From a bacterium (lineage in GTDB: Bacteria > Patescibacteriota > Minisyncoccia > UBA6257 > GWB1-50-10), in the NCBI GenBank assembly GCA_021811055.1, contig JAJZPU010000001.1, positions 1 through 50,233 on the forward strand: a stretch of DNA of 50,233 bases. Reading direction: 5' to 3'. The stretch's first letter is position 1; the number at the start of each line of letters is the position of its first letter. Under the pieces are notes generated by a model. That model made no database searches. It had not been told where the DNA came from and saw only the letters and a list, made by a program, of their open reading frames with translations. Shown here one piece after another: positions 1,868 to 42,998 of the stretch. Both the position numbers and the translations under genes were made by a program.

Positions 1868-4800
1868 GTGAAATTCACAAAGTCATTTCTGGTATTTTTA
1901 TTCGTAAGCGTTGCCATTGCCACTTTTTTTGTTGCCGTGTTTTACACCGACACGGTGAAGGCCGCGTTATGGTCTGTGAATAGTTCTGATTCTTTAACTC
2001 TTTCTCCCTCTACAAATTCAATTTCTCTTTCGTGGTCATTGAGCCAAATAAATGGCGGGACTCAAACTATTTATCGTAACGGATCCGCCATTACTTCGGT
2101 GGGCGTAGGAACTTCCTCATACACAAATTCCGGACTGGCTACGTGTACCTCGTATTCCTACAGTGTATGTTCCGCATATGGGTGTGCTTCTGCTTCCGTA
2201 TCTACAACCGGATGCGACCCGTGTGCAGGAGTGACGTGTAATGCTTACTGTTCCGGTTCAACCGCATACTATTCCGGATATTGTTCGGGCGGCGCGTGTT
2301 ATTATTCGACCGATAACTGTGCGAACGGGTTTTGCAGTGGTATGGTGCCATATCCCGGATCAACGTGTACTTCTGGAGTATGTAATCGCACTGCCGGATC
2401 GACGTGTCTTTCATCAACGTGTTCGGGAACGACATATTTATACAGTGGTTATTGTTCGGCGGGTTCATGTGGCTACGGTGCATCGTCAATCACTGCGGGT
2501 ACGTGTGGCGCAGTATGTACTCCTGGAACAACGCGGACGATGTATGCGAATTCGCAAATGGCGTGTGGTAATTCGTGTTTAAGCGAAACACAAACCTGTA
2601 ATAGTAGCGGAACAGGATGGTCCGGATCATACACATTAACATCGTGTACTCCCACAACGCGGACAGCGTACGGAGCACTTACCTCCGCGTGTGGAACATA
2701 TTCGTATACGAGCGAAACGCAGACTTGTCAAACAAGCGGCGCATGGAGTCCTTATAATTACACACTTACCTCTCCACCTTCCGCAACTACTCAAACTCGT
2801 TATGCCGCGGCAACATCCGCTTGCGGTACCTACGGATCAAACAGTGAAACGCAGACGTGCCAATCAAATGGATCGTTCAGCGGTACGTACACCCTAACTT
2901 CTCCCGCCACTGTTACCACTCAAACTCGTTATGCCGCGGCAACATCCGCTTGCGGTACCTACGGATCAAACAGTGAAACGCAGACGTGCCAATCAAATGG
3001 ATCGTTCAGCGGTACGTACACCCTAACTTCTCCCGCCACCATTACTACTCGTACACGCTATGCCGCGGCAACATCTGCATGTGGAACCTACGGATCAAAC
3101 AGTGAAACTCAATCGTGTCTTGCGGGGGGATCGTTTAGCGGTTCCTATACACTTACATCACCACCATCAGCGAGTACAAGAACAATGTATGCGGCGTCTT
3201 CCGTTGCGTGTGGTGGTGTGTGTTCAAGCGAAACGCAGACGTGTCTTTCGAGCGGATCGTGGAGCGGAACGTATGCATACAGTTCATGTAGCGTTACGGC
3301 GTGTCCTCCGGCGACTCCAGGTGCCCCCACGCTCACCGGATCGACACAATCATCAGTGAGCATCTCGTGGTCCGCGGTAGCGAATGCACTCGAATATTAC
3401 ATGTATAAAGACGGAGTCTATGTGGGGTACGTTTCTTATCTTAACCCTCTTTCATATACATTTAGTGGGCTTTCTTGTTCCACAAACTATTCAATAACGA
3501 TTTCTGCGGTAGGATCCGGAGGGGCATCTGGGCAATCATCCCCTCTTCTTGCTCTTACCCAGCTTTGTATTCCGGCGACAACCGCTCCATCGAATGGATC
3601 ATGGGTTAATTCACGGCAGTTTTGTGCGTGGGTTGATGGATATCCGGGGGTTTCAACGCGAGGAAAATTTGTTATAGGAGGAACGACATATAACGGAGGA
3701 TATAATGTGGGAGACGGATCAAGTTGTTATACACATACCGGGGATCTAAGCGGGGTGTCGTGGTATGTCTACTCGGAAGATTCGGCATTGCGCACAAGTC
3801 CTAATTCAGCTTCGTGGACAGCATATATTGATACGGTCGCGCCGACACCGAATCCACCGACTATTTCTTTAACATCGGCGGATTCGTCCTCTGTGACTGC
3901 GACGATCTCGAGCGGGTCCGATACGGCATCTGGGTTGAATGCCACTCCATACGGATTCTCCATTGATGGCGGCGCATATACATGGCAGTCGGGCACATCG
4001 AAAGCTTTTTCCGGTGTTTCGTGTGGGGTGTCTCATACGGTTACAGGAAAGATCCGTGACGCCGCAGGAAATGAAACGTCTGTGGGGAGTGGAACAATAA
4101 CTCCACTTTGTGCGCCTACGGGGGTTTCCGCAGTATTTTCGTACGGGGGAACGCCCACATTGGAACGCGTTGATATTTCTTGGAACGCGGTTTCCGGAGC
4201 AACCTCGTATACGATTTATGAAAAGGTGAATGGAGGGAGCTGGCAGACGATAAGCCCCGATTATTCGTGGGGGGCGACATCAAAGAGCGTCCGGAACGGA
4301 ACGCTTTCCTGCGGAAGCACATACGAATATGCGGTAGTCGCGAATGGTCCGACGGGATCATCCTCAATGTCCGCCTCGAGCGGAGTCATGACCTACACTA
4401 CTCCGGGATCGCTTCCTAATTTTGCTATTTATGCATCAAACAACACATCGATTTGGCTCTCAACCTGGTGGGGAAGTCCGTATCTTCCAAGCGGGGGAGC
4501 GGCGCCTCTTTATAACATCCGCAGGAACGGAGTGCTCATCGCAACGATCCCACAGTATGACTATATAGATTCCGGACTCAGCCAGAATACCTTATATTCT
4601 TATACGATCCAGCCGACAAACGCCTGCGGAGGAGGACCGACAAGTCCGTCGTATTCTGGACGCACACTGGGAAGTATGTCGATGTCTCAGGGGGGTTCGA
4701 CTCAAACCTCCATATCCGCGTGCTGGAGCGATCCCGTGAACCCCAGCCACCCAGACGTTGATACGTACAATTACCGGAATATCATACGAAACTCGGGCGC

Positions 4801-37609: not shown

Positions 37610-37681
37610 GGTCCCATCGTCTAACGGTTAGGACACCGCCCTCTCACGGCGGTAATAGGAGTTCGATTCTCCTTGGGACTA
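37610..37681 (+). tRNA. tRNA-Glu (anticodon CTC), CCA not encoded
   Basis: Manual cloverleaf: acceptor GGTCCCA/TGGGACT, anticodon stem CCGCC/GGCGG with loop CTCTCAC, T-arm AGGAG-TTCGATT-CTCCT, discriminator A. It closely resembles canonical bacterial tRNA-Glu. Confidence 0.9.
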
Positions 37682-37682
37682 C

Positions 37683-37722
37683 GTATACAAAAAGAGATAT
37701 TTTAATATCTCTTTTTGTATAC
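37683..37722. terminator. Perfect 18-bp AT-rich hairpin directly after tRNA-Glu (terminator/processing hairpin)
   Basis: GTATACAAAAAGAGATAT (37683-37700) pairs with ATATCTCTTTTTGTATAC (37705-37722) around the loop TTTA. Confidence 0.6.
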
Positions 37723-37730
37723 ATGGTTTT

Positions 37731-37890
37731 GGAGAATCGAACGGGAAAGGGGTCGGGAAAACGGAAGTTTTCCCGTGTAGGAAAACAGTCCGCCGACTGG
37801 CGGACGTTAGAAACCGAGAGGTGTCTAAAGAGTCCCGAACGAAGTTGAGGGACGACGTGAGATTCTCCTTGGGACTGTGAAGTTGAGGGC
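37731..37890 (+). ncRNA. Comparatively GC-rich structured non-coding segment between tRNA-Glu and the Cys-rich paralog cluster (unknown RNA element)
   Basis: Hairpin CGGGAAAAC-GGAA-GTTTTCCCG (37754-37775) has a GNRA loop. A second hairpin is GTCCGCC-GACT-GGCGGAC (37788-37805). GGAGAATC (37731-37738) is complementary to GATTCTCC (37861-37868). AGTCCC (37831-37836) is complementary to GGGACT (37871-37876). The direct repeat GAAGTTGAGGG occurs at 37841 and 37879. Confidence 0.35.
37861..37876 (+). repeat. Exact 16-nt duplicate of the tRNA-Glu 3' end (GATTCTCCTTGGGACT; original at 37665-37680)
   Basis: Direct sequence identity over 16 nt with a 196-bp offset. This is an att-like arrangement, but no integrase is present. 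Confidence 0.9.
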
Positions 37891-37918
37891 GATTTTTATT
37901 TTGGGTATGATTAAAGCA

Positions 37919-39631
37919 ATGGATTTGGAAACAAAACTTTGTCAGAATTGTCGGAGAAATTTTACGATAGAAAGCGAGGATTTTAATTTCTACAAAAAAA
38001 TAGATGTACCGCCCCCGACATGGTGCCCCATGTGCCGGAGGGAACGGCTTTTGTCGTGGAGAAACGAGCGGACGCTTTATAAACGGAAATGTGCCGCAAC
38101 GGGAAAGGATATTGTTTCAATATTTTCTCCGGATGGTCCGATTAATGCCTATGAGCGGGATTATTGGTGGAGTGATGCGTGGGATGCCCGACAATTCGGT
38201 ATGGAATACGATTTTTCGATTCCATTTTTCACTCAATTCAGGAAACTTATGGAGCGTGTTCCGATGCCCTCGGTATTCAACAGTACTTGCGTGAACAGCA
38301 ATTATTGCAACCATGTCGCGAAGTCGAAAGATTGTTATTTCGTATTCGCGTCGTTTCAAAACGAGAACCTCGTGTATTCTTCTCAATGTGGTGACGTTCG
38401 TGATTCTTCCGATATTTTGACGGCAAACAGCTCCGAATTGTGTTATGAGGTGATAAAAGGCATGAAATTGTATCATGTGCTTTTTGCGGAGAATTCGGAA
38501 AACTGCAACGATTGCGCGTTCATCTACGACTGCAAGGGATGTCAGCAGTGCTTCGGATGTACGAATTTGCGGAATAAATCATATTATTTCTTCAATACTC
38601 CCTGCACGAAAGAGGAGTATCAGGAAAAGATAAAAGAATTCGATCTCGGAAAGAGAAGCGACATCAAGCGGGCATGGACGCTTTTTGAGGCGGAAAAATT
38701 AAAGGCAATCCGTCGCCCGGCATTTTTTGTGAATACGACCAATTCGACGGGAGATTATCTCGATCAGTGCGATTCGTGTAAATATTGTTTCGGTATCCGC
38801 ATGGGGGGACGAAACTGCAAATATTGCATGAATGGGGGATACACGTTGAACGATTCATACGACACATTCGGATGTGGCGATAATGGTGAATTGATATACG
38901 AATCGGTGGACGCGGGACTCAGTGGCTCACGATTTTTGTTCGATGTGGTGGCATATGGGGGGACAAATGTGGAATACAGTCTGAATTGTCACGGTTCGGA
39001 AAATCTCTTCGGCTGTATCGGTCTTCGGAATAAGCGGTACTGTATTTTGAATAAGGAATATACAAAAGAAGAATACGAAATACTGATACCGAAAATTAAG
39101 GCGCATATGAAAGAAATACCCTATATCGATACAAAGGGGCGGACCTATTCATATGGAGAATTCTTTCCTACGGAACTGTCGCTATTCGCATACAATGAGT
39201 CGCTTGCATATGAGCATTTTCCCTACACAAAAGAAGTTATCGAAAGACGGGGATATCCATGGAGAGATCTTCCGAAAAACGAATATGCGATTACCGTACA
39301 TACCGAAAATATTCCCGAAAGCATAGCCGATGTTTTCGAGGATATCACAAAAGAGGTCCTTGAGTGCGGACATAAGCGGACGTGTCTCGACAACTGTGTC
39401 GGCGCATTTCGTATTACGCCACAGGAATTTTCATTATATAAAAAAATAGGCGTCTCACTTCCGGAACTGTGTCCGAACTGCAGGCACATGGAACGGATAA
39501 AAAGAGCGAATCCGTTTTTCTTGTGGAAGAGAAATTGCGGAAAATGTGGAGTGTCAATGGAAACAACGTATGCTCCCGAAAGACCGGAAATTGTGTATTG
39601 CGAAGAGTGCTATCAGGGTGAGATCTATTAA
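37919..39631 (+). CDS. Cysteine-rich zinc-ribbon/Cys-repeat protein, paralog 2 of 4
   Basis: The start is chosen by alignment with the paralogs (MDLETKLCQNCRRNFTIESEDFNFYKKIDVPPPTWCPMCR) and TATGAT 37906-37911 lying 7 nt upstream. The track start GTG 37877 and ATG 37907 are alternatives. The C-terminus is ...CGKCGVSMETTYAPERPEIVYCEECYQGEIY. Confidence 0.85.
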   Translation: MDLETKLCQNCRRNFTIESEDFNFYKKIDVPPPTWCPMCRRERLLSWRNERTLYKRKCAATGKDIVSIFSPDGPINAYERDYWWSDAWDARQFGMEYDFSIPFFTQFRKLMERVPMPSVFNSTCVNSNYCNHVAKSKDCYFVFASFQNENLVYSSQCGDVRDSSDILTANSSELCYEVIKGMKLYHVLFAENSENCNDCAFIYDCKGCQQCFGCTNLRNKSYYFFNTPCTKEEYQEKIKEFDLGKRSDIKRAWTLFEAEKLKAIRRPAFFVNTTNSTGDYLDQCDSCKYCFGIRMGGRNCKYCMNGGYTLNDSYDTFGCGDNGELIYESVDAGLSGSRFLFDVVAYGGTNVEYSLNCHGSENLFGCIGLRNKRYCILNKEYTKEEYEILIPKIKAHMKEIPYIDTKGRTYSYGEFFPTELSLFAYNESLAYEHFPYTKEVIERRGYPWRDLPKNEYAITVHTENIPESIADVFEDITKEVLECGHKRTCLDNCVGAFRITPQEFSLYKKIGVSLPELCPNCRHMERIKRANPFFLWKRNCGKCGVSMETTYAPERPEIVYCEECYQGEIY

Positions 39632-39637
39632 TGTTCT

Positions 39638-41284
39638 ATGCAAAAGATTTGCGAACACTGTAAAAAAGAATTTTCGATAACGAATGAAGAGCTCGGAATG
39701 TACGAAAAACTCGGGTTGGAACTTCCCCGAATATGCTTTTTCTGCAGAGTAAGCCTTCATTTTTCGGTATGGCCGTTCGGAAAATTCAGAAAAACAAAAT
39801 CAGATCTTTCGGGAGAAAGTATGATCACGGTGCTTTCGGCGCAAAAGAGATACCCGATCTATACACTTCACGAGTGGCATAGTGACGCGTGGGATGGGAT
39901 TGATTATGGAAAGGAATATGATCCATCAAGACCGTTTTTCGATCAGATGAAGGAGCTGCAAGAAAAGGTGCCGCGTCCGCATCAGGGGGCGGGGAACAGC
40001 ACGAATTGTGACTGGTGCGATGATGTGTGGAATTCGAAGAATTGTTACCTTTCACGATCAATGGAGGAATGTGAAGACCTCTACTATGCATACCGCGTAT
40101 TTCGCGGGAAGAATTCAATCGACCTCGTATTTTGTTTTGATTCTAATAATTGCTATGACTGCACGTACTGTTTCAATTCTTACGACCTCTTCTATTCACA
40201 GAATTCCCGCGATTGCATGAATTCATATTTTCTCTTTGACTGCAGGAACTGTTCAAATTGTTTTATGTGTTGGAATTTACGCGGAAAATCATATTGTATC
40301 GAGAATATACAATATTCGAAGGAGGAATACCTTGAGAAAATCGGATCATTTCAACTTACGTCATTTAAGTCAATTCAGAATTTTCGAATCCAATTCGGTG
40401 AGATGGTAAAAAAGAATGTTGTGCATCGGGAAAATTTCAATATCAGGGCAAATAATTCCGAAGGGGAATTTCTTCTGGATATGAATAATGCCCACAATTG
40501 TTTCGGAATCCAGTTTTCCGAAGAGTGTTACAACTGCGTGCGTGGTTTGACCGACAAAACGAACATTGACGCGAACGGATGTTGGTACGCAGAATTTGTG
40601 GGAAATTCGAGCTCGTGCGTGAATGCGTATGCGATGAAATATTCCTCATGGTCATCGGGTCGTTTTTCCGAATATCTCGATCTTTGCAAGGAGTGCGAAT
40701 ATTGTTTCGGATGCGTGGGACTTAAAAATAAAAAATATTGTATTTTGAACACACAGTACACGAAGGAAGAATACGAAGCGCTTCGGGAAAAAGTTATTGG
40801 AGATATGAAAGCGAGGGGAGAGTACGGGTCGTTTTTCCCGTATGCAATGAGTACCGGTCCATACAATTTTTCGACAAGCTATAGCTATTTTCCCGAAAAA
40901 ACAAAAGAAGAAATTCTCGCGCTTGGAGGATATTGGGAAGATATCGATGAAACCCGTACGGAAGGCATGCCGACCGCGGAATTGCCGGACGATATTCGCG
41001 ACGTTCCCGATTCAATTATCGCACAGGCGCTCATTTGTCCCGTATCGGGCTGGCGTTTCAATATTGCGCAGAGAGAGCTGGAATTCTATAAACAGAAGGG
41101 TGTTCCTCTTCCGCGCGTGCATTTTGATGTGCGCATCAAAGAGCGCATGAAATATCTTACGGTATTGAAACCAACGGAGCGTGCGTGCGTGTTTTGTGGA
41201 AAGAATATGCGCGTCTATTATCCAAAAGAGTGGAAATATGAGAAAATTGCATGTACGGAGTGTTATCAAAAAGAAGTGGCGTAA
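39638..41284 (+). CDS. Cysteine-rich zinc-ribbon/Cys-repeat protein, paralog 3 of 4 (most diverged)
   Basis: Starts MQKICEHCKKEFSITNEELGMYEKLGLELPRICFFCR. The central motifs are CFMCWNLRGKSYCIENIQYSKEEY and CFGCVGLKNKKYCILNTQYTKEEY. The C-terminus is CVFCGK...CTECYQKEVA. It begins 7 nt after paralog 2. Confidence 0.85.
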   Translation: MQKICEHCKKEFSITNEELGMYEKLGLELPRICFFCRVSLHFSVWPFGKFRKTKSDLSGESMITVLSAQKRYPIYTLHEWHSDAWDGIDYGKEYDPSRPFFDQMKELQEKVPRPHQGAGNSTNCDWCDDVWNSKNCYLSRSMEECEDLYYAYRVFRGKNSIDLVFCFDSNNCYDCTYCFNSYDLFYSQNSRDCMNSYFLFDCRNCSNCFMCWNLRGKSYCIENIQYSKEEYLEKIGSFQLTSFKSIQNFRIQFGEMVKKNVVHRENFNIRANNSEGEFLLDMNNAHNCFGIQFSEECYNCVRGLTDKTNIDANGCWYAEFVGNSSSCVNAYAMKYSSWSSGRFSEYLDLCKECEYCFGCVGLKNKKYCILNTQYTKEEYEALREKVIGDMKARGEYGSFFPYAMSTGPYNFSTSYSYFPEKTKEEILALGGYWEDIDETRTEGMPTAELPDDIRDVPDSIIAQALICPVSGWRFNIAQRELEFYKQKGVPLPRVHFDVRIKERMKYLTVLKPTERACVFCGKNMRVYYPKEWKYEKIACTECYQKEVA

Positions 41285-41294
41285 GTCATATTAT

Positions 41295-42998
41295 ATGAAC
41301 AACGAACAAAGAACGTGCCAAAATTGCAAAAAAGATTTCACGATTGAAAGTGAAGACCTTGCGTTTTACGAAAAAATAAATGTACCGCCGCCGACCTGGT
41401 GCCCGAAATGCAGGCTTATCCGCAGGTTTTCTTTTATGAACTTGTGGAGTTTGTATAAACGAAAATGCTCGAAGTGTGGTAAATCAATGGTGAGTATACA
41501 TCCGGAAAATACAGAGTTCCCAGTGTATTGTCAGCCGTGTTGGTGGGCGGACGACTGGGATGGAACCGAATATGCGATTGAATATGATTCAAACCGCCCG
41601 TTTCTTCAGCAGGTACAGGAACTCGCGAAAAAAACACCATACATGGGTCTTGAGAGCGCATATCTTACCAATACAAATTGTGATTACACAAACGGGACGG
41701 CATATTCAAAAAATTGTTATATGACATTTTGGGCTGATTATTGTGAGAATGTCTATTATTCAATATTTCTCTTTAACCTCCGCGACTCACTTAATTGTTA
41801 CCGGATGAAGGACAGTGAGCTTTGTTATGAAGATGTTGGATGTTATAAGTGTTATGGTACGTATTATTCCGAAGAATGTGATTCGTGTACCGATATATGG
41901 TTTTCTCGTTCTTGTATTGGATGTTCACATTGTTTCGGATGTATTAATTTACGAAATAAAAGCTACTGTATCTTTAATGAGCAGTATTCAAAAGAGAAAT
42001 ATTTTGAAAAACTGAAGGAGTTTAATCTCTCTTCGTATTTCGCATTGGAAAATATAAAAAGAAAAGTTTATGAGTTATGGTTACAACATCCCCGTAGAGC
42101 ATATATAGGAAATAGCTTGAATGTAAATGTGACGGGTGACTATGTATATGAGTCCAAGAATTCACGTGATGCCTATATGGTAAGTGGCGTTGAAGATTCT
42201 CGATTTACTCAGTTTATTTCAGTGGCAAAGGCGCACGACTCTTATGACTATACCGGATGGGGGAATGGGGCAGAACGCATTTATGAATCATGCGTCGTTG
42301 GAGAGGGGGCGAATAATATAAAGTTTTCAAATGAATGCTGGCCCGACGTATTAAATGTTGAATATTCAATTTATGGAATTACATGCAAAAATATTATTGG
42401 ATGTGTGAATCTTAAGCGTAAGGAATATTGTATTTTGAACAAACAGTATACAAAAGAGGAATATGAAAAATTATCTGCGCATATCCGCAAAGATATGGAA
42501 CAGAATCCTTATAGCGATGTTGTGGGTCGTGTATGGAAATACGGTGAATTTTTACCATACGAACTCTCTCCCTTTTCTTACAATCAGACGATAGCGCTGG
42601 CATTTTTTCCAAAAGAAAAAGAAGAAGTCTTGGGAGAGGGAATAAAATGGCGCGAAACGGAGGAAAATGAATATCCAATCACGATGCGAGCTCAGGATAT
42701 TCCCGATTCGATTGAGAATACCGACGAATCTATTCTGAAGGAAGTTATCGCCTGTGAAAATTGTGGGAAGGCATATAAAATTCTTCAGGGAGAACTTGAT
42801 ATACTGAAGAGATTTTCCCTGCCCCTGTATCATCATTGTTCGATATGTCGAAGAAATATTTTATTTTCGAAGACAAATCTGCCGTATCTCTATGATAGGA
42901 GTTGTATGAAGTGCGGTAAGGCGATAAAAACTTCGTATGCTCCCGAAAGACCGGAAATAGTCTATTGCGAGGAATGCTATCAGGCGGAAATAGCGTAG
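41295..42998 (+). CDS. Cysteine-rich zinc-ribbon/Cys-repeat protein, paralog 4 of 4
   Basis: ATG 41295 gives MNNEQRTCQNCKKDFTIESEDLAFYEKINVPPPTWCPKCR..CSKCGK..CQPCW. The track start 41181 would overlap paralog 3. The C-terminus is CENCGK..CSICR..CMKCGKAIKTSYAPERPEIVYCEECYQAEIA. Confidence 0.85.
   Translation: MNNEQRTCQNCKKDFTIESEDLAFYEKINVPPPTWCPKCRLIRRFSFMNLWSLYKRKCSKCGKSMVSIHPENTEFPVYCQPCWWADDWDGTEYAIEYDSNRPFLQQVQELAKKTPYMGLESAYLTNTNCDYTNGTAYSKNCYMTFWADYCENVYYSIFLFNLRDSLNCYRMKDSELCYEDVGCYKCYGTYYSEECDSCTDIWFSRSCIGCSHCFGCINLRNKSYCIFNEQYSKEKYFEKLKEFNLSSYFALENIKRKVYELWLQHPRRAYIGNSLNVNVTGDYVYESKNSRDAYMVSGVEDSRFTQFISVAKAHDSYDYTGWGNGAERIYESCVVGEGANNIKFSNECWPDVLNVEYSIYGITCKNIIGCVNLKRKEYCILNKQYTKEEYEKLSAHIRKDMEQNPYSDVVGRVWKYGEFLPYELSPFSYNQTIALAFFPKEKEEVLGEGIKWRETEENEYPITMRAQDIPDSIENTDESILKEVIACENCGKAYKILQGELDILKRFSLPLYHHCSICRRNILFSKTNLPYLYDRSCMKCGKAIKTSYAPERPEIVYCEECYQAEIA

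Follow-up and report, generated by a model that had tools for sequence, protein, structure and literature searches.

Introduction

Integron attC sites are protein-less imperfect palindromes that close off the 3′ side of a unit with or without cargo, and the structured module described here, which lies behind a tRNA-Glu gene of a Patescibacteria (CPR) genome, resembles them in this layout (60-190 nt), in a fold conserved above sequence, in fixed stem mismatches and in the formation of tandem arrays. Its ends (...AAC / GTT...) can be compared with those of attC as well: the attC consensus ends read RYYYAAC...GTTRRRY, and the arms of the module end and start with ...GAAC / GTT... in copies linked to tRNA genes and with ...GACGC / GCGTC... 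in the other copies. In contrast to attC, where the reverse applies, the module has a conserved, multi-helix centre and a target-specific stem. Unlike in integrons, its antisense arm is rewritten at new sites, its duplications are long and variable, its target is the tRNA T-loop, and neither IntI nor an attI/Pc platform is found here. The module can also be compared with CTX phage and other IMEX, as an element without its own recombinase whose folded single strand could mimic a double-stranded target, a single Xer being available; IMEX however target dif without a long duplication and are kilobase-sized phages or islands, and nothing in the module evidently resembles dif. Islands and prophages that integrate into tRNA genes share with it a direct repeat running from the T-loop to the 3′ end, an intact tRNA and older ends stranded downstream, but the module carries no integrase, is non-coding and only about 0.1-0.2 kb long, uses one core for many tRNAs and includes an extra antisense copy.

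Among repeats, MITEs, REP/BIME and Rickettsia palindromic elements are, like the module, small, abundant, non-coding and hairpin-rich inhabitants of compact genomes, some of them similarly tolerated in or beside stable-RNA and protein genes. These elements have terminal repeats of their own, short fixed-length duplications or none, and a cognate transposase or RAYT. The "terminal inverted repeats" of the module, unlike those of MITEs, change with each site and are copies of target sequence, its duplications vary in length between 13 and about 100 nt instead of being fixed, and no Y1 transposase was found in its host genome (hereafter G000) or in the related genomes G001-G003. Finally, the module recalls the target-primed reverse transcription of LINEs and SINEs, with one precise and one imprecise junction, very variable duplications and a non-autonomous, RNA-sized unit; unlike LINEs and SINEs, it has an exact inverted copy of the target and shows neither poly-A nor a 5′ truncation series, and no reverse transcriptase was found in the most heavily colonized genomes.

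Here, we analyze a 50,233-nt stretch of G000 (contig JAJZPU010000001.1 of assembly GCA_021811055.1, the whole stretch being called the window), which probably holds an intact copy, followed by an older stub, of a protein-less structured insertion module colonizing the 3′ sides of tRNA genes in Patescibacteria. Full-text literature searches returned no description of such elements, and the insertion family is apparently undescribed.

Results

Organization of the tRNA-Glu locus

The tRNA-Glu(CTC) gene (T-loop G53 at 37661, CCA not encoded) is followed by a spacer, two arms enclosing a folded core, and the remnant of an older module (Table 1). An initial annotation had reported an exact 16-nt copy of the tRNA 3′ end, and every position it listed proved correct, including those of the spacer hairpin and of the two hairpins designated here H1 and H2. 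The 16-mer GATTCTCCTTGGGACT occurs at 37665-37680 and 37861-37876, with no third site in the window even when two mismatches are allowed; its chance expectation estimated from shuffles is 0.02 copies, and none of 100 shuffles contained two. It is also contained in the paralogous tRNA-Glu(TTC) gene on contig C17, behind which the same double arrangement of module and remnant is found. Within the left arm, the complement of the tRNA at 37731-37742 (GGAGAATCGAAC / GGAGAAUCGAAC) is perfect over 12 nt (reverse complement of 37661-37672, tRNA positions 53-64), and 37723-37730 pairs with GGGACUGU through four G.U pairs. In the right arm, tRNA positions 55-56 are altered from UC to GA, the final 16 nt are exact, and the junction GUGAGAUUC is also present in copies of G003 and G002. 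Overall, the segment 37723-37906 has a folding energy of -67.5 kcal/mol (z = -4.1 vs. shuffles).

Table 1. Features of the tRNA-Glu locus (window coordinates)
Feature	Position	Strand	Details
tRNA-Glu(CTC), target gene	37610..37681	+	ARAGORN; Rfam tRNA model 61.9 bits
tRNA-Glu segment copied downstream in both orientations	37661..37680	+	T-loop G53 to acceptor position 72
Spacer	37683..37722	+	Perfect 18-bp AT-rich palindromic hairpin, terminator-like, then AUGGUUUU
Left (antisense) arm	37723..37742	+	AUGGUUUU at 37723-37730
Fam1 core, long subtype	37743..37856	+	Opens with GGGAAAGGGG; CM R2 match 37743-37810, 61 bits
Helix H1	37754-37775	+	9 bp, GGAA loop
Helix H2	37788-37805	+	7 bp, subtype-specific and variable
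Helix H3	37807-37828	+	GAGA loop
Helix H4	37832-37853	+	GUCCC/GGGAC; contains end box GAAGUUGAGGG (37841-37851)
Core tail	37852-37856	+	ACGAC
Right (sense) arm	37857..37876	+	GUGAGAUUCUCCUUGGGACU = tRNA positions 53 to 72
Older-module remnant	37877..37909	+	Second end box GUGAAGUUGAGGG (37877-37889) and degenerate tRNA 3′ part CGATTTTTATTTTGGGTAT (37890-37908)

Two motifs of this interval have to be read differently than initially proposed. The 11-nt repeat GAAGTTGAGGG is indeed present at 37841 and 37879, on either side of the duplicate, but corresponds to the end box that modules of this family conserve on their 3′ side, and its second occurrence belongs to the older module remnant behind the intact module. 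Similarly, AGTCCC is located at 37831-37836 as reported, but forms the 5′ strand of the internal hairpin H4, and the suggested pairing with the tRNA acceptor is rejected because the hexamer pairs inside H4 and also stands behind other tRNAs (unchanged behind tRNA-Ala, tRNA-Tyr, tRNA-Pro and one further tRNA 3′ end, on L045). The older remnant, where CGATTTTTATTTTGGGTAT represents a third copy of the tRNA 3′ part, can be compared with the ends of Fam2 modules (GAGUYGAGGG/CGA, see below for the families), and is overlapped by a promoter-like site (TTGAGG 37883-37888, TATGAT 37906-37911) preceding the first Cys-rich gene. No promoter-like site was found before the window module and a terminator-like hairpin separates it from the tRNA, so that an RNA pairing with tRNA-Glu or controlling the Cys-rich genes, as once suggested, is unsupported. 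The absence of a nearby integrase was confirmed, with no such ORF in 37683-37860 or its flanks.

Known RNA families did not account for the interval. When Rfam was searched with the window stretch at permissive E-values, only the tRNA passed the gathering threshold, other matches being far below, and 14 other module-bearing loci yielded only tRNAs and sub-threshold noise. ARAGORN predicted neither a tmRNA nor a permuted tmRNA in the window stretch.

Two families of modules dispersed behind tRNA genes

We defined two core families in this analysis, named Fam1 and Fam2. Fam1 consists of GGGAAAGGGG, H1 with a GNNA loop, GGAAG, H3 (..AAACC-N4-GGU..) and a variable H4, closed by target-derived arms, a definition which the window copy fits through its CM R2 match, its alignments and its arms. 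Five Fam1 copies were counted in the 751-kb genome of G000 (core matches on C35, C22 and C48), and the core segment 37741-37783 has matches of 93% identity on three other contigs. Fam2, which has the same layout, adds about 25 copies, for a module total of 30 in G000 (G002 and G028 hold 14 and 13), and this layout is found behind about 22 of the 45 tRNA genes. Downstream of the tRNA come a spacer, which varies between family copies and usually includes a terminator-like hairpin, an antisense arm that copies T-loop and T-stem exactly, the conserved multi-helix core (about 70-120 nt), and a sense copy from the T-loop on, which continues into a direct repeat of the target. Modules also form tandem arrays (on C31, C58 and C17, and at 54.4-56.1 kb of G003:C1), and one Fam2 module (C17:10306-10390) lies about 1 kb behind a tRNA-Ser(CGA) gene that its right arm matches. 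The tRNA-Asp gene of G000 is followed by a solo antisense arm only, and a module is present there in G001, G003 and G004.

The interval is therefore one copy of a dispersed, structured and gene-less insertion family, as anticipated by an initial reading as a miniature non-autonomous element. The competing reading, a remnant of an excised or decayed integrative element, does not agree with the same core being found behind at least 20 different tRNAs and inside protein genes, with arms rewritten at each site. It had further been envisaged that the 16-mer might belong to a longer dispersed repeat unrelated to tRNA; this applies to the core, but not to the 16-mer itself, which is tRNA-derived.

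Arms copied from the target gene

Wherever the target can be read (i.e., the tRNA sites and the 5′-end sites in fusA and tRNA-Leu), both arms begin at the same target nucleotide, and the core is therefore closed by a stem of target sequence. In tRNA genes, this shared start is G53 of the T-loop, and the antisense arm of every tRNA-linked copy ends in the complement of G53, abutting the core. The antisense arm complements its local target without mismatch. The sense arm departs from the target at one to three fixed positions within its opening 7-8 nt, and the stem always has a mismatch or bubble at T-loop positions 55-56 or 57-60; farther on, the repeat matches the target perfectly over 13 to about 100 nt. 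Neither staggered-cut transposition nor snap-back after target-primed synthesis, both considered as candidate schemes, reproduces an antisense arm that fits the real target better than it fits the sense arm.

Nearly identical cores are combined with different arms. A module 91% identical to the window copy lies behind tRNA-Ala on G003:C4, its arms (AGGCAGAATCGAAC and GATTCTGCCTAGGTCCACA) matching tRNA-Ala, and other copies were found behind tRNA-Tyr, tRNA-Pro, tRNA-Ser and tRNA-Arg in G002 and behind tRNA-Ile, tRNA-Asp and tRNA-Lys in G004. Within G000, the Fam2 cores of C38 and C30 are alike at 85 of 86 positions, yet serve tRNA-Val and tRNA-Arg. Arms of the same copy form a stronger duplex than exchanged arms (-16.8 kcal/mol for true partners vs. 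-10.9 kcal/mol for swapped ones). The stems of 16 copies are equally stable on the top and bottom strands (-16.8 vs. -17.1 kcal/mol), the window stem being top-strand specific (-20.6 vs. -13.8), and Fam2 helices include 14 G.U vs. 7 A.C pairs; based on these pairs and on arm duplex energies, no general strand bias was found in the stem.

Covariation of the core helices

The initial annotation had proposed to look for covariation in the hairpins, and the core helices do covary strongly. For Fam1, covariation was observed in H1 and H3: in the alignment fitted to a covariance model (A4), 97.3% of the cells were paired (83.9% in shuffles) and 13 of 17 pairs changed on both sides, values reached by none of 500 shuffles, with slid controls at 31-65%. 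RNAalifold applied to the raw MAFFT alignment of Fam1, in which the long subtype is misaligned, retrieved just H1 and a stub of H3, and H3 was assessed from an anchored table and the covariance-model alignment. For Fam2, compensatory changes affect 24 of 25 pairs across 18 G000 copies. The core helices are capped by tetraloops of the G-N-N-A type (e.g., GGAA, GAGA, GCAA). The orthologous tRNA-Asp modules of G001 and G003 show compensatory differences in H3 and H4, which look like in-place selection on the fold, and a function suits this better than a purely selfish element.

Occupied and empty sites among relatives

Comparison with relatives revealed both states of the orthologous murF-tRNA-Glu site, as sought from the outset: the congener G002 carries a Fam2 module there, whereas in G001 the two genes are 28 nt apart and the module is absent. 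More distantly related genomes retain murF-tRNA-Glu but carry neither a Fam1 nor a Fam2 module there. A MurF-guided metagenome scan for an empty version of the window site at the strain level returned 56% amino-acid identity as its closest match.

Insertions were also detected at the 5′ ends of protein genes (typA, fusA and an RNase H-like gene), with duplications of 43-75 nt. That of typA in G000 has a 43-nt duplication including the ATG, and the same site is empty in G003; that of fusA in G004 has an antisense arm matching at 12/12 positions and a duplication of about 75 nt. In G026, a copy is inserted antisense at the 5′ end of a tRNA-Leu gene with a 26-nt duplication, and shares with the fusA copy the junctions AGACGC/GGGAAAGG and CGAC/GCGTCT. 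We also considered whether the transcription start sets the limit of the duplications in protein genes; two of the three cases agree with this, but not typA, which has a Shine-Dalgarno leader, and the idea was dropped.

Broadly, Fam1 was detected in 22 of 31 related genomes (0-15 copies each) and Fam2 in 13 of them (0-25 copies each), and 41 of the 401 genomes of a phylum-wide sample contain Fam1. A same-strand tRNA gene precedes 35 of the 43 Fam1 copies examined outside G000. At L060 and L130, the stranded 3′ ends derive from a different tRNA allele.

Search for a mobilizing enzyme

The profiles RVT_1, Phage_integrase, Y1_Tnp and Y2_Tnp were searched in the 31 genomes, and none of them tracks the modules. 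RVT_1 was not found in G000 (98% complete), G002 and G028, for which controls responded; the Y2_Tnp profile was silent, but so was its control. Each genome holds one Xer-like recombinase. In the whole of G000, this is the only PF00589 match, located on another contig than the window (C54:5543-6055), a tyrosine recombinase which scores as XerC/XerD/XerA and reaches 117 bits against a cut-off of 265 for the integron-integrase model TIGR02249. No reverse transcriptase was found linked to a module, and the one congener enzyme examined (G004) is group-II-intron-like and below every curated cut-off. RVT_1 was present in 14 of 23 module-bearing vs. 1 of 8 module-less genomes (Fisher p = 0.037, uncorrected and with phylogeny uncontrolled).

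Discussion

We infer a mobile module, for which host enzymes or others would do the copying in trans. Insertion would be replicative: the T-loop-like tail of the module would anneal to a single-stranded target, DNA synthesis continuing from this tail would generate the direct repeat with one fixed and one variable end, and the antisense arm could arise by fold-back or strand-switch copying of the same target. In the window, a Fam1 module may thus have landed at the T-loop of tRNA-Glu, pushing downstream an earlier Fam2-like module, the remains of which would now supply promoter-like hexamers for the Cys-rich gene. As the mobilizing enzyme was not found, the insertion chemistry is pure inference. 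It is possible, if doubtful, that the modules form a new class of re-addressable mobile element, in which a gene-less folded RNA or single-stranded DNA of ~100 nt picks its site by pairing and is copied in by host replication or repair enzymes; in so doing, it would write a new antisense "address" and duplicate the end of the gene it interrupts. Such an element would amount to guided insertion that needs no protein, or only host enzymes, and that is native to bacterial genomes of the smallest size. Separately, no simple single-step scheme giving the antisense arm could be devised, which counts against a mobile module, and identical cores with different arms could also come from gene conversion between resident modules.

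Alternatively, the module might be a folded single-strand recombination site at a cassette end (of the attC or CTX attP(+) type), with Xer or another integrase inserting conservatively at the T-loop a unit made of a replacement tRNA 3′ end, a spacer or cargo, and the module, the two-arm stem mimicking the double-stranded T-arm target. The stem does reproduce the target duplex, its fixed mismatch or bubble recalls the extrahelical bases of attC, modules end units able to hold cargo (e.g., the ~1 kb behind tRNA-Ser(CGA) on C17), tandem arrays occur on C31, C58, C17 and G003:C1, exactly one Xer-like recombinase is available in each genome, and the stranded allele ends at L060 and L130 fit an imported replacement end. 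We nevertheless consider this scenario unlikely, as conservative recombination can produce neither a 12/12 antisense arm at a brand-new site (fusA, tRNA-Leu 5′ end) nor perfect duplications with so variable an outer end (13 to about 100 nt), the recombinase scores under the integron-integrase cut-off, and nothing resembling an attI platform was seen. In another scenario, the module would be a SINE-like RNA that target-primed reverse transcription turns into DNA. This would explain a duplication fixed at the T-loop with a variable far end, and the weak association between RVT_1 and modules points in the same direction; such a retroelement appears very improbable, however, when RVT_1 was not found in three of the genomes rich in modules (G000, G002 and G028), the G004 enzyme is of the group-II-intron type, no reverse transcriptase is module-linked, and an exact antisense arm is an abnormal product for this process.

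The module could also be a host-useful RNA of tRNA transcription units (for processing, stability, termination or regulation), spread by duplication and kept by selection, its antisense arm pairing with the tRNA T-arm and its closing stem mimicking the acceptor/T-arm stack. The strong covariation of the core helices with their G-N-N-A tetraloops, the compensatory differences between tRNA-Asp modules, an antisense arm remaining an exact tRNA complement while the sense arm deviates, a module orientation that is always that of its tRNA, and the four G.U pairs of the window stem, possible on the top strand only, are consistent with such a role. Yet modules are patchy (close relatives hold anywhere from 0 to 30, and only about half of the tRNAs have one), congeners may lack a module at the same tRNA or carry one of another core family, antisense copies sit inside protein-gene 5′ ends, a terminator-like hairpin usually intervenes, no promoter-like site was found before the window copy, and the stem has no general strand bias, which together make this explanation improbable. 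Hardly credible is the initial proposal of 16-mers as attL and attR of a tyrosine-integrase island or prophage in tRNA-Glu, decayed to about 180 bp: a tRNA 3′ direct repeat from the T-loop (37665 and 37861) is the classic footprint of such elements, and older-copy remnants do lie downstream, but the interior is conserved and covarying, has a 91%-identical counterpart after a different tRNA of a second genome, and is not private to this site since it recurs behind about 22 tRNAs of G000, no integrase remnant was found in or near it, and the sole tyrosine recombinase of the genome is Xer-like.

Few known genomes are as small and streamlined as those of CPR/Patescibacteria. G000 nonetheless devotes about 30 loci, behind half its tRNA genes, to a gene-less folded insert, and related cores occur in roughly a tenth of the genomes sampled phylum-wide. 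Whatever their nature, these modules generate tRNA-end duplicates, pseudo gene starts and contig breaks, and will mislead annotation as well as island finders based on att sites. If modules indeed relocate with no dedicated enzyme and fit new arms to each target, their insertion chemistry would be an undescribed one; a compact folded nucleic acid able to address a chosen sequence while sparing the hit gene would also be clearly attractive for genome engineering. If, on the contrary, they act as functional RNAs linked to tRNAs, a major bacterial radiation would contain a large RNA family not yet annotated.

Genomic Context and Distribution of the Module

The last 16 bases of tRNA-Glu(CTC) before the discriminator (GATTCTCCTTGGGACT) recur exactly downstream of the gene, as noted in the initial annotation, and no further copy exists in the window with up to two mismatches allowed (shuffle expectation 0.02 copies). 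The hairpins, the 12-nt complement of the tRNA, the AGTCCC segment and the 11-nt repeat described there are all present where they had been placed (see table), and the stretch 37723-37906 folds at -67.5 kcal/mol (z = -4.1 against shuffles). When the source genome (G000; 751 kb, 98% complete, CPR size) was queried with 37683-37906, three other contigs proved to carry the core (37741-37783) with 93% identity and the same anatomy: the core sits between direct repeats particular to the locus, and directly left of it the beginning of this repeat is present once more in inverted, likewise locus-specific form. The window holds one copy of a widespread, structured and gene-less insertion family with the tRNA T-loop as its target, which it copies in both orientations, and the earlier reading as a miniature non-autonomous element is borne out.

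Features of the tRNA-Glu(CTC) locus (window coordinates)
Feature	Position	Remark
tRNA-Glu(CTC)	37610-37681	
GATTCTCCTTGGGACT	37665-37680; 37861-37876	exact direct repeat
Spacer hairpin	37683-37722	perfect, 18 bp
Left arm	37723-37742	37731-37742 exact complement of tRNA positions 53-64
GGAGAATCGAAC	37731-37742	perfect 12-nt reverse complement
Core	37743-37856	H1, H2, H3, H4
GGAA-loop hairpin	37754-37775	
Hairpin	37788-37805	
AGTCCC	37831-37836	
H4 pairing	37832-37836; 37849-37853	GUCCC with GGGAC
GAAGTTGAGGG	starts 37841 and 37879	two copies
Tail ACGAC	37852-37856	
Right arm GUGAGAUUCUCCUUGGGACU	37857-37876	tRNA positions 53-72, positions 55-56 altered

Short-range direct repeats were catalogued and all 45 tRNA genes of G000 tabulated; ~22 of these genes turned out to be followed by a common layout: a spacer, often a terminator-like hairpin; an antisense arm with the 3' end ...GAAC, complementary to T-loop positions G53-C56; a conserved core; and a sense tRNA copy from the T-loop to the 3' end or beyond. 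This layout is common to two core families. Fam1, that of the window, reads GGGAAAGGGG, H1 with a GNNA loop, GGAAG, H3 and a variable H4 (5 copies in G000), and Fam2 reads GCCGGAGC, a hairpin, GCGAGGCGGUGCC, a hairpin and GAGUYGAGGGC (~25 copies). Neither family matched any model in Rfam, and no description of such modules was found there or by full-text literature search. Among 31 relatives, genomes carry 0 to 30 copies, and the Fam1 core was detected in 41 of the 401 genomes sampled across the phylum (34 of 320 genera), where hits from other families and classes also reach near-consensus scores. Outside the window, 35 of 43 Fam1 copies lie 13-158 nt downstream of a same-strand tRNA (>15 isoacceptor types).

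Comparison between copies changes the reading of two annotated segments. AGTCCC, formerly taken as complementary to the tRNA-Glu acceptor, is the 5' strand of H4 and is unchanged in copies after tRNA-Ala (congener G003) and after tRNA-Tyr and tRNA-Pro (congener G002); it is therefore unrelated to that acceptor. The 11-nt repeat, which does occur twice, is the family's conserved end box (GAAGUUGAGGG; the Fam2 3' end reads GAGUYGAGGG/CGA). Its first copy is within H4 of the resident module; the second forms, together with the CGATTTTTATTTTGGGTAT that comes after it (a third, degenerate copy of the 3' part of the tRNA), the stub of an older module. The paralogous tRNA-Glu(TTC) on contig C17 shows this arrangement of two arms and an end box as well, so the nesting is older than the duplication of both tRNA-Glu genes.

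The stub includes a promoter-like TTGAGG-17-TATGAT (37883-37921; a match by consensus only), made up of the end box of the remnant and the degenerate copy of the tRNA tail, just upstream of the first of three tandem Cys-rich paralogues (37907-42998, ~550-600 aa). A leaderless mRNA from this putative promoter would begin near ATG 37919, and with this start (MDLETKLCQNC...) the protein matches both downstream paralogues at the N-terminus more closely than with GTG 37877 or ATG 37907. The sole Pfam match of these proteins is a sub-threshold C-terminal treble-clef zinc finger (PF23477), and the genus has many more paralogues, as DNA matches show. A 129-bp tandem repeat at 2789-3040 of the window (G000 contig C5; ~3 units, 122-nt exact copy) is unrelated to the modules.

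Structure and Junctions

The core helices of both families covary. For Fam2, compensatory changes occur at 24 of 25 predicted pairs (18 copies, G000 only), and one covarying helix flanks a tandem G.A internal loop. For Fam1, H1 and H3 are 97.3% paired across 43 copies vs. 83.9% in shuffles and 31-65% in slid controls, with both-sided change at 13 of 17 pairs and observed values reached by 0 of 500 shuffles, all in an alignment that had been fitted to the model. Three positions of H3 also covary in an independent anchored table. H4 is a hairpin in every case, its sequence being free to vary. True arm pairs form stronger duplexes than swapped ones (-16.8 vs. -10.9 kcal/mol); overall, top and bottom strands give equal energies, except in the window copy, which depends on four G.U pairs.

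Readable targets (tRNA sites, plus fusA and tRNA-Leu 5'-end sites) share a set of junction rules. Both arms start at one common target nucleotide, a G (G53 in tRNAs; in fusA and at a tRNA-Leu 5' end, the G of GCGTCT), in the form ...C/core.../G.... Over 10-15 nt the antisense arm complements the local target exactly. The sense arm departs from the target at fixed positions within its first 7-8 nt (55-56, or 56 and 59-60); some families have instead a 3-nt bubble at positions 57-59 of the antisense arm. The direct repeat is perfect from ~position 61 onward and its outer end is variable (just beyond the tRNA, after the terminator, or past the antisense arm; 13 to ~100 nt), and spacers are unlike one another between copies. 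In at least one instance, that of tRNA-Ser(CGA) on C17, the module with the matching arm lies ~1 kb away from the tRNA.

Insertion and Turnover

Genome comparisons indicate that the modules are inserted and turning over. A module 91% identical to that of the window follows tRNA-Ala(CGC) in G003 (arms AGGCAGAATCGAAC and GATTCTGCCTAGGTCCACA). The murF gene next to the window module is only 84% identical between G000 and G003. The orthologous murF-tRNA-Glu(CTC) site is occupied by a Fam2 module in congener G002 and empty in congener G001, where the tRNA adjoins murF; in G003 this tRNA does not follow murF in the 170 nt left before the contig end, and more distant relatives keep this synteny without a Fam1 or Fam2 module. 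Antisense Fam1 copies are found at the 5' ends of typA (G000, 43-nt duplication), an RNase H-like gene (56 nt) and fusA (congener G004, ~75 nt), and in all three the start codon is duplicated and the gene therefore remains whole; the typA site is uninterrupted in G003. At tRNA-Asp, G000 has a solo antisense arm without core and G001, G003 and G004 have a module. Two Fam2 cores are identical at 85 of 86 positions, yet carry arms for tRNA-Val and tRNA-Arg, respectively.

The protein-gene inserts (G000 C35:19162-19376 and C22:4049-4268; locus L051) have an AT-rich spacer adjoining the displaced start, with -10-like hexamers 6-8 nt before the ATG (TATAAC-N7-ATG for typA), as if supplying a new leaderless promoter; the reading frame opened by an upstream pseudo-start of typA runs into the module and ends 4 nt short of the real ATG. 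On a metagenome contig (L060; Ga0265297_10043141, ~1802-1945), the acceptor stem of tRNA-Glu(CTC) is unlike that of its close relative L058, and 50 nt downstream the L058-type allele is represented by its 3' end, GATTCCCGTTAGGGCTGC; the whole tRNA appears to have been replaced, its old end stranded from the T-loop on. A layered replacement history is likewise suggested at L130 (G165:C27:26680-27500) by, in this order, a functional tRNA-Ile(TAT), the stranded 3' half of another allele, a Fam1 module and once more the same stranded end including CCA. Two Fam1 modules in G002 (L046 and L048, contig C1) contain extra 18-20-nt GC hairpins (CTGCCTGCGGTAGGCAGG and CCTGCCTGCCGGTAGGCAGG) that resemble another inserted hairpin repeat of still smaller size.

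Candidate Enzymes and Possible Mechanisms

Neither RVT_1 nor a Y1 transposase was found in G000. Its single tyrosine recombinase scores as XerC/XerD/XerA, well under the integron-integrase cut-off, and the att scar of an integrative element proposed initially is contradicted by a covarying module dispersed over many sites. Reverse transcriptase and module presence are weakly associated among 31 genomes (p = 0.037, uncorrected), and the enzyme is absent from three of the five module-richest; the one congener enzyme checked, that of G004, is group-II-intron-like and under all curated cut-offs. Two Fam2 matches lie within ~100-250 nt of the single Xer-like recombinase gene of a related genome (G012:C17:266-1026), and the G000 Xer gene (C54:5543-6055) is ~560 nt from tRNA-Leu(TAG), itself without a module.

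The fixed junction at a T-loop-like tail, combined with a variable far end, suggests priming or annealing followed by synthesis. We consider it probable that the module moves in trans, that insertion would be replicative, with synthesis after priming or annealing at the target, and that the antisense arm would be copied from the target by fold-back or strand switching, as required by exact antisense arms at brand-new sites (12/12 in fusA). Conservative recombination at a folded site, in the style of attC or CTX, would account for the stem, its fixed mismatch, cargo and arrays, but leaves the new antisense arms and the variable duplications unaccounted for, and seems unlikely to us. Still harder to credit is a host-useful RNA, favoured by in-place compensatory change between orthologous tRNA-Asp modules but at odds with patchy distribution, site turnover and terminators intervening between tRNA and module.

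It is rather doubtful that the modules represent a categorically new, guided insertion mechanism relying on host enzymes only. The nearest known systems are attC cassettes, Xer-exploiting elements, tRNA-integrating islands, MITE/REP-type repeats and SINE-like retroposition, from each of which the modules differ in at least one tested defining feature; we file them with small non-autonomous insertions or cassette sites.
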